Position numbers and translations under genes: made by a program
Shown here: piece after piece, positions 12,709 through 28,709 of the stretch
How the letters are laid out: every line of letters starts with the position of its first letter
How positions within the stretch are numbered: the first letter of the stretch is position 1
NCBI GenBank assembly: GCA_964639855.1
Contig: CAZXFY010000013.1
Span: 6,756 to 70,755, forward strand
Origin: an uncultured Stakelama sp.
GTDB taxonomy: Bacteria > Pseudomonadota > Alphaproteobacteria > Sphingomonadales > Sphingomonadaceae
Length of the DNA: 64,000 nucleotides
Reading direction: 5' to 3'
The notes under the pieces: model-generated
What the model was told of the DNA's origin: nothing
Databases searched by the model: none
What the model saw: the letters and a program-made list of their open reading frames with translations, nothing else

Positions 12709-13227
12709 TCACGCCCCGTCCTCGCGAGCGAGATAGGGATCGGCAAGGCCCAGATCGGCCATCGCGCGGCGCTCGATCTCCTCCATCGCCTCGGCTTCGG
12801 TATCGTCGATATGATCGTAGCCGAGCAGGTGGAGCGTGCCGTGGATGACGAGGTGCGCGGCGTGATCCTCGGGCGAAACGCCCTTCTCCCCGGCCTCGGC
12901 GGTGCACACGCCATGCGCGAGCACGATGTCGCCCAGCAGCACCTCGCCATCGTCCGAATTCTCGCTGATCGCCTCGATCAGATCGGGCTGTACCATCGGG
13001 AAGGAGAGGACGTTGGTGGGCTTGTCCTTGCCGCGATAGTCGCGGTTGAGCACGCGCACGTCCTCGTCGCTCGTCAGCCGCACCGAAATCTCGATCCGCG
13101 CGGGCGTGTCGATCAGCGGCCCCTGCGGTGTCCGCCGGATCGCCGCCGTCACCGCGCTGCGGGCGAGCGCGGGCCAGTCCGGGGCGGACGGCCAGGGGGG
13201 CTCACGGGTGAGTTCGATCTCGATCAT
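12709..13227 (-). CDS. ybeY: rRNA maturation RNase YbeY
   Basis: LNRDYRGKDKPTNVLSFP, LLGDIV, HGTLHLLGYDH. Confidence 0.96.
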   Translation of the reverse strand: MIEIELTREPPWPSAPDWPALARSAVTAAIRRTPQGPLIDTPARIEISVRLTSDEDVRVLNRDYRGKDKPTNVLSFPMVQPDLIEAISENSDDGEVLLGDIVLAHGVCTAEAGEKGVSPEDHAAHLVIHGTLHLLGYDHIDDTEAEAMEEIERRAMADLGLADPYLAREDGA

Positions 13228-14225
13228 GCCTCACGCCCCTCATATGCCTCGACGATGCGGCCGACGATCGGGTGGCGCACGACGTCGGCGGCGGTGAAGC
13301 GGACCATGGCGATGCCCTCGATCCCCTCCAGCCGCGCGGTGGCATCCGCCAAACCCGAGGCGGCGACGCCGCCGGGGAGATCGACCTGGCGCGGATCGCC
13401 GCAGACCACCATGCGGCTGTTCTGGCCGAAGCGCGTCAGGAACATCTTCATCTGCGCGGGCGTCGTGTTCTGCGCCTCGTCGAGGATCACGAAGGCGTCG
13501 GAGAGGGTGCGGCCGCGCATGAAGGCGATCGGCGCGATCTCGATCTCGCCGCTCGCGATCCGCCGCTCGACCTGCTCGGGCGGCATGCAATCGTAGAGCG
13601 CGTCGTAGAGCGGACGGAGATAGGGATCGACCTTCTCCTTCATGTCGCCCGGCAGGAAGCCCAGCCGCTCACCCGCCTCGACCGCGGGGCGCGAGAGGAT
13701 GAGGCGCTGCACCGATCCGGTGATGAGCTGCGCCACCGCCTGTGCGACCGCGAGATAGGTTTTGCCCGTGCCCGCGGGGCCGAGCGCGAAGATCATGTCG
13801 TTGCCCACCAGCTCGCGCATGTAATGCGCCTGGGCGGGCGTGCGCGGCACGATCGTCTTGCGGCGCGTGCGGATCATGATCTGCGGCGCGCGGTCCCCCG
13901 CTTCGGCGCGCACGATGCCGTCCAGCTCGGGCTCGGACGCCATCGCGATCGCGGCGTCGACCAGGCCGGGATCGATTTCCTCGCCGCGCTGGATGCGCTT
14001 GTAGAGATCGCTCAGCACGTCGCGGGCGAGCGCCACGTTCTCGGCGGTGCCTTCGAGGCCGACGCGGTTGCCGCGCGCGGTGATATAGACGCCGAGCCGG
14101 TTTTCGAGCGCCGCCAGGTTCTGGTCGTATTGCCCGAAAAGGACGCTGAGGAGCTGCGGCTTGTCGAACGTCACCTCGAGGCGGGAGCGATCGCCTTGCT
14201 GGGCGGGAACGGGCTTGCGGCTCAT
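13224..14225 (-). CDS. phoH: PhoH family ATPase
   Basis: GPAGTGKT, LSRPAVEAGERLGFLPG, RGRTL, LDEAQN, GDPRQVDL. The true start is ATG 14225; the ORF-track extension runs through a REP. Confidence 0.95.
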   Translation of the reverse strand: MSRKPVPAQQGDRSRLEVTFDKPQLLSVLFGQYDQNLAALENRLGVYITARGNRVGLEGTAENVALARDVLSDLYKRIQRGEEIDPGLVDAAIAMASEPELDGIVRAEAGDRAPQIMIRTRRKTIVPRTPAQAHYMRELVGNDMIFALGPAGTGKTYLAVAQAVAQLITGSVQRLILSRPAVEAGERLGFLPGDMKEKVDPYLRPLYDALYDCMPPEQVERRIASGEIEIAPIAFMRGRTLSDAFVILDEAQNTTPAQMKMFLTRFGQNSRMVVCGDPRQVDLPGGVAASGLADATARLEGIEGIAMVRFTAADVVRHPIVGRIVEAYEGREA

Positions 14226-14292: not shown

Positions 14293-14317
14293 AACGGTGC
14301 GGGCGGACACTGGTTCC
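14293..14317 (-). promoter_or_regulatory. Candidate EcfG/sigma-T-type promoter upstream of phoH
   Basis: The minus strand reads GGAAC-CAGTGTCCGCCCGCAC(16)-CGTT, 68 nt upstream of the ATG. A single hit could be chance. Confidence 0.4.
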
Positions 14318-25588: not shown

Positions 25589-25623
25589 AAAAAAAAGCCC
25601 CGCGATCATCGATCGCGGGGCTT
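25589..25623 (-). terminator. Terminator of small-protein copy 1
   Basis: aagccccgcgatc-atc-gatcgcggggctt with an A8 run. Confidence 0.85.
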
Positions 25624-25643
25624 CCATATCGGTTGCGCGTCGA

Positions 25644-25934
25644 TCAGCCCGCGCTGTCGGGCTCGTCGTCGCCGTCGGTCGCGACGATGACGCCGGCGAT
25701 AACCGCACCGGCTGCGAGCACGCCGACGCCGATCGCAGCGCCCTGGCTGATCGCGTTGCTCTTCTTCTTGAGCTTGGTCGCGGTCCGGAGGCCGTTGGTC
25801 GGTGCCTGAGCCGTCTGCACTCCCGCGACGGGGAGCGCGCTGCTCGACCGCGTGGCGTCGGCCGCGAAGGCCGCCGTCGAGGTGAGCAGGCAGGCAATAG
25901 CACCAAGGCCGGCGGCGTACTTTCTCCGAGTCAT
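25644..25934 (-). CDS. Small secreted/membrane protein, paralog 1 of 4 (96 aa)
   Basis: MTRRKYAAGLGAIACLLTSTAAFA|ADATRS...GLRTATKLKKKSNA-hydrophobic segment-DGDDEPDSAG; SD gggag. Confidence 0.88.
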   Translation of the reverse strand: MTRRKYAAGLGAIACLLTSTAAFAADATRSSSALPVAGVQTAQAPTNGLRTATKLKKKSNAISQGAAIGVGVLAAGAVIAGVIVATDGDDEPDSAG

Positions 25935-25985
25935 CGTCGTCTCCCTTTGGATAGGTTGCAGGGCGAAATACTCCTCTGGCCGGTA

Positions 25986-26010
25986 AACGCAAGGGGTTTT
26001 TGCTTGTTCC
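25986..26010 (-). promoter_or_regulatory. EcfG/sigma-T-type promoter of copy 1
   Basis: GGAAC-AAGCAAAAACCCCTTG(16)-CGTT, 52 nt upstream of the ATG. Confidence 0.75.
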
Positions 26011-26204
26011 CCATCCATATGGGATGAATCGGTGCGCCCGGGCCACATGCCGAGAGGCGCGGCATCGCAACGCGCAACGTCAACGGGCGGCATGCTCCGG
26101 CGGGCATTCGGGACCAGCACGTCGCGCGCATCGTCAGAACGATCAATTACCGATCGGCGGGGCTGCGCAGCGTCGTTCTTCGGCGCCCGGCTCGAACGGA
26201 TGCG

Positions 26205-26236
26205 AAAGGCCCTGCGATCGCGTGGATCGCAGGGCC
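26205..26236 (-). terminator. Terminator-like hairpin of copy 2
   Basis: ggccctgcgatc-gcgtg-gatcgcagggcc, a perfect 12-bp stem with only a short A run. Confidence 0.7.
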
Positions 26237-26267
26237 AGCGTTTTCCGACCGGTGCCTGTGCGTCGGA

Positions 26268-26570
26268 TCAGCCCGGGCTGTCGGGTCCGTCGTCGTCGTC
26301 ATCGAGTGCGACGTAGACGCCCGTTCCGACCGCGGCGATCCCGATGATGCTGAGCGCGATCACGCCGTCCTGGCCCAATGCGTTGCTCTTCTTCTTGAGC
26401 TTGGTCGCGGTCCGAAGACCGTTGACCGGCGCGGGCGCCGTCTGCGCGATCGGGACGGGGAGCGCGCTGCTCGACCGCGTGGCGTCGGCCGCGAAGGCCG
26501 CCGTCGAGGTGAGCAGGCAAGCAATCGCTCCAAGGCCGGCGGCATACATTCTCGTCGTGCGAATCATCAT
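26268..26570 (-). CDS. Small secreted/membrane protein, paralog 2 of 4 (100 aa)
   Basis: Same leader, GLRTATKLKKKSNA, hydrophobic segment, and DDDDDGPDSPG. Confidence 0.88.
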   Translation of the reverse strand: MMIRTTRMYAAGLGAIACLLTSTAAFAADATRSSSALPVPIAQTAPAPVNGLRTATKLKKKSNALGQDGVIALSIIGIAAVGTGVYVALDDDDDGPDSPG

Positions 26571-26617
26571 CGTCTCCCTTTCCGATGGGGTCGTCGGGCG
26601 GAACTCCTGATCGCGAT

Positions 26618-26642
26618 AACGCGATGAGTCCAGGCTTGTTCC
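26618..26642 (-). promoter_or_regulatory. EcfG/sigma-T-type promoter of copy 2
   Basis: GGAAC-AAGCCTGGACTCATCG(16)-CGTT, 48 nt upstream of the ATG. Confidence 0.75.
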
Positions 26643-26657
26643 ACGCGATCAGGGTGT

Positions 26658-26688
26658 AAAAAGCCCTGCGATGGCGCCACCGCAGGGC
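26658..26688 (-). terminator. Terminator of copy 3
   Basis: aaaaa-gccctgcg...cgcagggc. Confidence 0.7.
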
Positions 26689-26711
26689 CCTTGAGAATCG
26701 CTTGCGCCCGA

Positions 26712-27002
26712 TCAGCCGGGGCTGTCGGCATCGTCGTCGTCGGCCACGACGACGATCGCGGCCCCGACCGCCACCGCGCCCAGGATGCCGACGGCGATCA
26801 TCGCATCCCGGTTCAGCGCGTTGCTCTTCTTCTTGAGCGTGGTCGAAGACCGAAGCCCTTGCGTCGGCGCATGCGTCCCCGGTTGCGCAACCGGATTGAG
26901 GAGCGCGCTGCCCGATCGCGTCGCATCGGCAGCGAAGGCTGCGGTGGAGGCGAGCAGGCACGTGATCGCTCCCAGGCCGGCGGCGTACTTTGTAAGGGTC
27001 AT
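26712..27002 (-). CDS. Small secreted/membrane protein, paralog 3 of 4 (96 aa)
   Basis: KYAAGLGAITCLLASTAAFA, GLRSSTTLKKKSNA, hydrophobic segment, and DDDDADSPG. Confidence 0.88.
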   Translation of the reverse strand: MTLTKYAAGLGAITCLLASTAAFAADATRSGSALLNPVAQPGTHAPTQGLRSSTTLKKKSNALNRDAMIAVGILGAVAVGAAIVVVADDDDADSPG

Positions 27003-27049
27003 CGTCGTCTCCCGTTGGTTGGCTCCAGAGCCTAGTTCATCCCCACGTA

Positions 27050-27074
27050 AACGCGAAGGGTTTTCGGTGGTTCC
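27050..27074 (-). promoter_or_regulatory. EcfG/sigma-T-type promoter of copy 3
   Basis: GGAAC-CACCGAAAACCCTTCG(16)-CGTT, 48 nt upstream of the ATG. Confidence 0.75.
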
Positions 27075-27165
27075 ACCTCGTTTCGCGACGAAAACGACCC
27101 TTCGGTTCGTGCGATCCCGCGCGGCGTCATTGCCGGAATGCCGCGGCGGGAGGCGCAGGAATACG

Positions 27166-27198
27166 AAAAAGGCCCCGCGATCTTCCGACAGCGGGGCC
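27166..27198 (-). terminator. Terminator of copy 4
   Basis: aaaaa-ggccccgc...gcggggcc. Confidence 0.7.
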
Positions 27199-27221
27199 CC
27201 TTGAATTCGCTCGTGGACCGA

Positions 27222-27506
27222 TCAGCCCGCGCTGTCGGGCTCGTCGTCCTGCGTCGCGACCAGAATCCCGCCTCCCACGACGACCGCGCCGATGAGGCCG
27301 ACGCCGATCCATTCGTTTCCGGTGAGCTTGCTCTTCTTCTCGAGCTTGGTCGCGGTCCGGACGCTGCTGGTCGGCGCCGCCTGAACCTGTGCCGCCGGGG
27401 CGGGCAGCGCGCTGGCCGACCGCGTGGCGTCGGCCGCAAAGGCCGCCGTCGAGGTGAGCAGACACGCGATCGCACCGAGCCCGGCCGCGTACTTCATCCG
27501 AGTCAT
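27222..27506 (-). CDS. Small secreted/membrane protein, paralog 4 of 4 (94 aa)
   Basis: MTRMKYAAGLGAIACLLTSTAAFA, VRTATKLEKKSKL, hydrophobic segment, and QDDEPDSAG. Confidence 0.88.
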   Translation of the reverse strand: MTRMKYAAGLGAIACLLTSTAAFAADATRSASALPAPAAQVQAAPTSSVRTATKLEKKSKLTGNEWIGVGLIGAVVVGGGILVATQDDEPDSAG

Positions 27507-27704
27507 TTGGTTTCCCCTTTTCTTGAATATATTGGATGGCGGGATACTCGTCTCGGCGGCGGACGCAAGGGGTTTCTGCTTGTGCGCCATCGATTTGGCA
27601 AACCACCGGTGCAGTCATGTCACATCCGCAACGTCCCCCCGTCGCTCGGGCAAACCGCTCTTCCGCATTGCAGGGCGGCGGGCGTCGATGATAGCCGGCA
27701 CGGC

Positions 27705-28709
27705 ATGAAGAGGGGTCGAGTTCGCCTGTTCGTCTGCCTTCTGGGCGTATGCGTGATGGTCGCGCCGGTCGGTGGCGGCGCCCGCGCGCATCCGCCCGAG
27801 CGCGATCGGCAGGCGCTGTTCGCCGGGTTGCGCGCCGCGGACCTGCGGCTGGCGACGATCGCCTATCGGCTGATGGTCGCCAATGTCGCGCTCTGCGATC
27901 GGCGCGCGGGCGCGACCGGCCTCGTTCTCCACGCGCTCGATTCGTACGATTCGGATGTCCGGGCCGATGCACGGCGCTATTTCCGATTCGAAACGCCGAT
28001 CGCGATCGAGGCTGTCGTTGCGGGAAGCCCGGCCGCGCGCGCCGGTGCCGCCGCCGACCAGTCGGTCGCCGCGATCGACGGCGCCTCCACGCGCGAGGGC
28101 GGGCTGTCGCTCGACGAGGTCCGCGCCCGCCTGGCCGCGATTCCGCCGCGGGGCGCGCTCTCGCTCGCGGTGACGAGCGGCGGGCGCGCGCACCGGCTGA
28201 CGATCGCCGCGGTTCCCGCCTGCGCCGGCCGCGCCGAGCTCAAGCTCACCGACGACCTCAACGCCGCGACCGACGGGCTCGTGCTCCAGGTCAATTCGGC
28301 GATGCTCAACGTGATCGGCGAGGATGACGAGCTCGCCGCGCTCGTCGCGCACGAGCTCGCGCATATTGTGCTCCGCCATCCCGAGCGGCTCACCGCGGCG
28401 CATGTCTCGCGCGGCATGTTCAGCATCTTCGGCCGCAACGCGCGGCTGATCCGCAGGACCGAGATCGAGGCCGACCGGCTGAGCGTCGTGCTGCTCGCCA
28501 ATGCGGGCTACGATCCGCGCGCCGCCGTGCGATTGTGGCGCCGCCACGGCGAGGCGCTGGGCGACGGCGGCCTGCTCGCGGGCACGACGCATCTCGACCT
28601 CGAGGACCGGATCGCGCTGGTCGAGCGCGAGGCGGCGCTGATCCCGCCCGACGGCCCGCGCCCGATCGTGCCCCAGTGGATCGAGAGCCGCACGCAGCCG
28701 CTCGACTGA
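27705..28709 (+). CDS. Secreted PDZ + M48-family zinc metallopeptidase
   Basis: Signal peptide, PDZ-like IEAVVAGSPAARAG, HELAH zinc motif, EIEADR third-ligand motif, AGYDP, and a THx motif. Start at ATG 27705. Confidence 0.85.
   Translation: MKRGRVRLFVCLLGVCVMVAPVGGGARAHPPERDRQALFAGLRAADLRLATIAYRLMVANVALCDRRAGATGLVLHALDSYDSDVRADARRYFRFETPIAIEAVVAGSPAARAGAAADQSVAAIDGASTREGGLSLDEVRARLAAIPPRGALSLAVTSGGRAHRLTIAAVPACAGRAELKLTDDLNAATDGLVLQVNSAMLNVIGEDDELAALVAHELAHIVLRHPERLTAAHVSRGMFSIFGRNARLIRRTEIEADRLSVVLLANAGYDPRAAVRLWRRHGEALGDGGLLAGTTHLDLEDRIALVEREAALIPPDGPRPIVPQWIESRTQPLD

Follow-up and report, generated by a model that had tools for sequence, protein, structure and literature searches.

Three of the four small genes arrayed in tandem on the minus strand of the window (the whole 64,000-nt stretch analysed here, C13:6756-70755 of a 3.48 Mb assembly with 67% GC) are very probably separate single-gene units, each transcribed from a promoter of the general-stress sigma factor EcfG (ECF15), and such promoters would have been lost in copy 4 of the array and in a fifth paralog elsewhere in the genome. 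An earlier note on this DNA had read the GGAAC-N16-CGTT sequences upstream of copies 1-3 as EcfG-type promoters, and that reading is upheld by the agreement of the consensus itself, the cascade locus, the positional enrichment of the motif at spacers of 16 and 17 nt, and its conservation upstream of orthologs.

In the mechanism we propose, each unit would run from an EcfG promoter through a leader of roughly 40-45 nt, with GGGAGA as its Shine-Dalgarno sequence, and an ORF of 96-100 aa to a rho-independent terminator. HWE/HisKA2 kinases would phosphorylate PhyR under stress, and PhyR~P would sequester NepR and so free EcfG, which would bring RNA polymerase to GGAAC (the -35 box) and CGTT (the -10 box). 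Transcription would start about 6-8 nt downstream of CGTT (for copy 1, at a predicted position of about 25978-25980) and yield three mRNAs of about 400 nt, and the joint induction of three paralogs would provide a higher dose, or a greater diversity of isoforms, of a small envelope protein. The promoter would have decayed in copy 4, the one nearest the peptidase gene, and in the fifth copy, which is unlinked. We infer the start sites, the stress induction, the acting sigma factor and the mode of expression of copy 4 from sequence, the identity of the sigma factor specifically from the motif and the content of the regulon.

Four small genes, their terminators and their promoter motif

The four ORFs of the array are paralogs of 94-100 aa, 63-72% identical to copy 1. 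The features of the array and of its divergent neighbour are as follows:

25593..25625, minus strand: copy 1 terminator, a 15-bp GC-rich stem followed by U8
25644..25934, minus strand: copy 1 CDS, 96 aa
25986..26010, minus strand: copy 1 promoter, GGAAC-AAGCAAAAACCCCTTG-CGTT, exact match
26208..26236, minus strand: copy 2 terminator-like hairpin, a 12-bp stem followed by UUU
26268..26570, minus strand: copy 2 CDS, 100 aa
26618..26642, minus strand: copy 2 promoter, GGAAC-AAGCCTGGACTCATCG-CGTT, exact match
26659..26692, minus strand: copy 3 terminator hairpin, a 15-bp stem followed by U5
26712..27002, minus strand: copy 3 CDS, 96 aa
27050..27074, minus strand: copy 3 promoter, GGAAC-CACCGAAAACCCTTCG-CGTT, exact match
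27168..27201, minus strand: copy 4 terminator hairpin, followed by U5
27222..27506, minus strand: copy 4 CDS, 94 aa, ORF intact
27562..27586, minus strand: copy 4 decayed promoter remnant, CGCAC-AAGCAGAAACCCCTTG-CGTC, 3 mismatches in 9 box positions
27705..28709, plus strand: PDZ-like plus M48 metallopeptidase gene, divergent from copy 4 with 198 nt between

Behind a signal-peptide-like N-terminus (…TAAFA/ADATRS) the array proteins have a KLKKKS patch, then a hydrophobic stretch rich in Gly, Ala, Val and Ile, and finally an acidic tail with DS(A/P)G at its end. They would be exported or membrane-anchored envelope proteins; compared with Pfam and NCBIfam, they matched no family, with only sub-threshold noise (Asr, DUF680). 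A fifth paralog occurs on another contig of the same genome (C17:2432-2722, plus strand), with a Na+/H+ exchanger gene on one side and GH16-infC-thrS on the other. The earlier count of three motif-bearing genes out of four is thus correct within the array and incomplete for the genome, this fifth paralog having a decayed -35 box. The array copies are old (dS between copies 0.34-0.82), and dN/dS among copies is 0.3-0.56, copies 4 and 5 included. Two tandem copies on a soil contig (L055) resemble copies 2 and 1, in that order, and both have a perfect motif; the array is therefore older than this strain.

Strong GC-rich hairpins stand 3′ of all four ORFs (MFE -28.8 to -35.5 kcal/mol, z-scores -2.1 to -4.3), and since every ORF is followed by its own hairpin and U tract, the array is read as four single-gene units and not as an operon. 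The suggestion that copies 1-3 are independent units is plausible in this light, with a terminator of its own behind each copy. The promoter sites of copies 1-3 lie in non-coding DNA, co-oriented with their coding sequences and just 3′ of the terminator of the preceding unit; the end of the copy 3 terminator, for example, is only about 15 nt from the -35 box of copy 2.

Downstream of the promoter sites, in the predicted leader, copies 1 and 4 and the orthologs that adjoin a peptidase gene share a conserved block, GTATYYCGC-N3-TGCAAC (25940-25975, minus strand); a leader of the GAGTTCC(C)GC type takes its place in copies 2 and 3 and in certain other members of the family. An alignment of homologous leaders gave no consensus structure in the conserved 5′ leader (-0.56 kcal/mol).

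The three GGAAC-N16-CGTT sites were found exactly where they had been reported, on the minus strand, and the last T of CGTT is 51, 47 and 47 nt from the ATG of copies 1, 2 and 3, in agreement with the earlier figure of 48-52 nt under that note's way of counting. In a DNA alignment the boxes of the four units share the same columns and are invariant in copies 1-3. The spacers had been described as diverged, which is true of copies 2 and 3 (9/16 and 11/16 positions identical to copy 1) and not of copy 4 (15/16).

Within the window as a whole, GGAAC-N16-CGTT occurs 4 times where 0.39 would be expected, a number not attained in any of 100 shuffles. Taken by itself this count overstates significance, as the three array matches stand at homologous positions 5′ of paralogs and are not independent. 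GGAAC-N17-CGTT does not occur within the window. The fourth N16 match (14293-14317, minus strand) lies outside coding sequence, 67 nt 5′ of a gene for a PhoH-like ATPase (about 13224-14225, minus strand; PF02562, E = 1e-91); it could be a further EcfG target or have arisen by chance.

The motif across the genome and the PhyR-NepR cascade

For the genome-wide survey, genes were called with a crude codon log-odds caller of our own (3251 genes, 90% coding), which was used in place of a GC3-only calling that had missed three of the four array copies; the same calls served for every spacer length. Sites were counted as promoter-placed when they were intergenic and no more than 200 nt upstream of a co-oriented start. 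Promoter-placed GGAAC-Nx-CGTT sites number 11 at N16 and 13 at N17, against 0-4 at each of the spacers N10-15 and N18-24, and the consensus matches in upstream segments at N16/17 come to 24, where 3.6 were expected from the control spacers. Raw genome-wide counts show no enrichment (21 at N16, about 18 for control spacers). Positional enrichment of this spacer-specific kind shows the motif to be functional here, as judged from where the sites fall. The genes behind the promoter-placed sites include those for DUF1328, entericidin, Hva1_TUDOR, DUF326, DUF308 and DUF2171 proteins, as well as DUF5670, CoA_binding_2, MliC and several small hydrophilic proteins, a set that looks like an alphaproteobacterial general-stress regulon.

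The cascade that would govern these sites is encoded at one locus on contig C16, where a gene for an HWE-type kinase adjoins phyR, nepR and an ECF sigma gene:

C16:46909-46995: NepR (PF18557, 28.9 bits, above cut-off)
C16:47321-48124: PhyR (NF006623, 376.8 bits against a cut-off of 240 bits)
C16:48417-49055: ECF sigma factor, at the same locus as PhyR and NepR

We call this sigma factor EcfG by synteny only, its best NCBIfam matches being generic and below cut-off. The nepR promoter, GGAACCAACGAGACGGTATTTGGTT, is nearly identical to promoter #1444 of the EcfG regulon of Sphingomonas melonis Fr1, GGAACCAACGAACGCGACTTTGGTT.

AAC-type -35 boxes are read by many ECF sigma factors, and the sites in the array might be genuine ECF-type promoters that are read by a different member of this class in response to an envelope-specific signal, for example by the sigma/anti-sigma pair at C15:49078-50246. 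The genome has about eight ECF-like sigma matches (NF006089, a generic ECF model), the C15 sigma factor also matches the PhyR_sigma2 profile, its anti-sigma factor has a weak NepR-like stretch, and envelope products paired with the gene of an envelope protease would suit an envelope-stress ECF sigma. However, experiments in two other Sphingomonadaceae have established exactly this 9-nt consensus and spacing for EcfG, the same class of motif precedes nepR and typical general-stress genes in this genome, and no such motif was seen in front of the C15 sigma gene; we therefore regard control by another ECF sigma factor as quite improbable, and favour EcfG as the factor that would act on copies 1-3.

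Conservation of the motif in the gene family and comparison with known regulons

Close homologs of the array genes are few and none of them bears a name; the loci compared are those of Hephaestia caeni, a Hephaestia sp., a Sphingomonas MAG and several soil metagenome contigs. Upstream of orthologs the motif is conserved, as the earlier reading would lead one to expect: 12 of 17 distinct upstream regions of the gene family carry GGAAC-N16/17-CGTT without a mismatch and in a common register, at 36-52 nt from the start codon (in one locus, L054, counted from the likely MIRTQ start), and the boxes are kept while the spacer and flanks drift. Two further regions differ by a single mismatch (AGAAC…CGTT and GGAAC-N17-CATT), and the boxes have decayed in three, namely those of copy 4, of copy 5 (GAAGC…CGTT) and of L051/L052 (GAAAA…CGTT). 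In a 15-sequence alignment the majority frequency averages 0.94 over the nine box columns, 0.71 over the spacer and 0.66 over the other upstream columns (Mann-Whitney p = 2.7e-6, a descriptive value only, in that related rows are treated as independent).

The three array matches are paralogous and not independent, and raw motif counts in the genome equal those for control spacers, both of which would suit a reading of the motif as sequence without promoter function, retained by descent or homogenised among recent duplicates, with transcription from other promoters. Against this, all nine box positions are kept in copies 1-3, and the boxes are kept in most orthologs from other species, with spacers and flanks diverged; since the copies are as old as their dS values indicate, this retention points to selection and not to recent duplication or homogenisation. 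In addition, a scan of the array region for sigma-70-type promoters found none, hence also no alternative promoter for copy 4, and the enrichment of promoter-placed sites in this genome is specific to the N16 and N17 spacers. Mere descent or homogenisation is for these reasons very improbable indeed, and the comparison of upstream regions indicates that the EcfG-type promoter is ancestral to the gene family and maintained by selection.

A wider, unannotated family of 70-90-aa proteins (L019-L047), which combine a signal peptide and …ELEGGSG with a hydrophobic helix and a DDDD(E)PxSP tail, is found in 53 of 301 sampled Sphingomonadaceae genomes. A general link between EcfG and this wider signal-peptide/TM/acidic-tail family was considered and rejected, the motif being found in 2 of the 24 members examined, at -128. 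On two metagenome contigs (L054, 3001-3312, and L056, 1827-2117) a paralog with a perfect EcfG motif is directly downstream of PF10090 and Prok-JAB genes, and L054 has an rpoH-like gene nearby as well. PF10090 (HPTransfase) is a domain that we take to be ChpT/PhyT-like, and the adjacency to PF10090 and Prok-JAB may be a link to a general-stress phosphorelay neighbourhood.

The EcfG regulons of two other Sphingomonadaceae offer the closest comparison. In Sphingopyxis granuli TFA the EcfG consensus is GGAAC-N16-CGTT, the AAC triplet is near-invariant (3 mismatches among 79 promoters), the -10 box is flexible, and promoters with a consensus -10 are the strongest in vitro (PMC7083833); in S. melonis Fr1 the motif is GGAAC-N17-20-GTT, enriched less than 100 bp from coding sequences (PMC6599016). 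The consensus given in the earlier note agrees with both reports. The array promoters resemble those of the two strains in their boxes and spacing (GGAAC-N16-CGTT) and in lying within 100 bp of a coding sequence; many targets in those regulons are likewise small hypothetical, secreted or membrane proteins, and the locus of phyR, nepR, kinase and ECF sigma genes is shared, down to the nepR promoter in the case of S. melonis. Unlike the targets in these strains, those in the array are known solely from motif, conservation and genome statistics, and they form a tandemly amplified family that has no Pfam model and in which two paralogs have lost their boxes.

The SigT regulon of Caulobacter and the RpoE2 regulon of Sinorhizobium include many small uncharacterised proteins, among them DUF1328, entericidin and CsbD-like classes, and small envelope and hydrophilic stress proteins often occur in them as paralogs. 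The sigma family and the consensus are the same as for the array, a putative member of such a regulon; we know of no homolog of the small array protein in either regulon. The array promoters are in this sense further members of a well-known type of regulon, and the mechanism is a textbook one. Less ordinary are the lack of a Pfam model for the family, its tandem amplification, its divergent pairing with a PDZ-M48 gene and the decay of the promoter in some paralogs. The promoters would assign to the general stress response an unannotated family of small envelope proteins whose distribution is restricted to a lineage of Sphingomonas- and Hephaestia-like bacteria, and the perfect, one-mismatch and decayed promoters in homologous contexts are natural variants that could serve to calibrate EcfG promoter strength.

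Decayed boxes in copies 4 and 5 and the divergent peptidase gene

A degenerate version of the motif is present upstream of copy 4, at the place and in the form (CGCAC-N16-CGTC) given earlier; in it the AAC triplet has become CAC, the -35 box has lost its first G and the -10 box its last T. The single-mismatch variants enriched at N16/17 in this genome are GGCAC, GCAAC, GAAAC, GGTT and CGCT; classes like that of copy 4 are not enriched at these spacings (CGAAC 2 vs 4.8, CGTC 6 vs 4.4, CGCAC…CGTT 2 vs 6.8). The copy 4 site thus lacks both the intact AAC triplet and the NGTT-type -10 that mark an EcfG promoter, and we do not class it as one, because the AAC and the -10 are broken and the corresponding variant classes are not enriched. 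Three of the four differences between copies 4 and 1 across the 25-nt site fall in the boxes, a bias that is not significant (p about 0.12, hypergeometric estimate). The ORF has remained intact, with a dN/dS of 0.33-0.52 against the other copies. A change in the regulation of copy 4, as proposed in the earlier note, is reasonable given the broken boxes and the behaviour of their variant classes, and copy 4 probably remains in use, with EcfG control lost or only weak.

The leader of copy 4 (27507-27545, minus strand) contains an AT-rich insertion, CCAATATATTCAAGAAAAGG, which is unusual at 67% GC, and its Shine-Dalgarno region is changed. The insertion might create a new promoter or alter translation; to see a promoter in the weak TATATT of this leader is speculation only.

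At the homologous position copy 5 has GAAGC-N16-CGTT, in which the -35 box has decayed and CGTT is intact; a syntenic ortholog of copy 5 on a metagenome contig (L053) has a perfect motif. Having decayed boxes yet intact ORFs, copies 4 and 5 are probably driven by EcfG no longer or only weakly.

The peptidase gene that diverges from copy 4 is the divergent neighbour of a small gene of this family in at least six other loci (L015, L016, L048, L049, L051, L052), with 68-77% amino acid identity, and the pairing is kept even where other flanking genes differ. No EcfG motif was found on the peptidase strand. The conserved pairing suggests, from gene order, a functional link between the small gene and the peptidase. 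One could go further and suppose that, after the amplification of an ancestral EcfG-driven gene, copy 4 beside the peptidase gene and copy 5 at its unlinked site escaped general-stress control and stayed under purifying selection, a regulatory subfunctionalisation that would have produced a basal isoform and three stress-induced isoforms of a protein acting as a dedicated partner or substrate of the PDZ-M48 protease; we consider this extended scenario rather unlikely. In another genome the peptidase-adjacent copy (L051) has lost its -35 box and a second copy from the same sample (L053) has the perfect motif, a pair that hints at a recurrence of the subfunctionalisation pattern.
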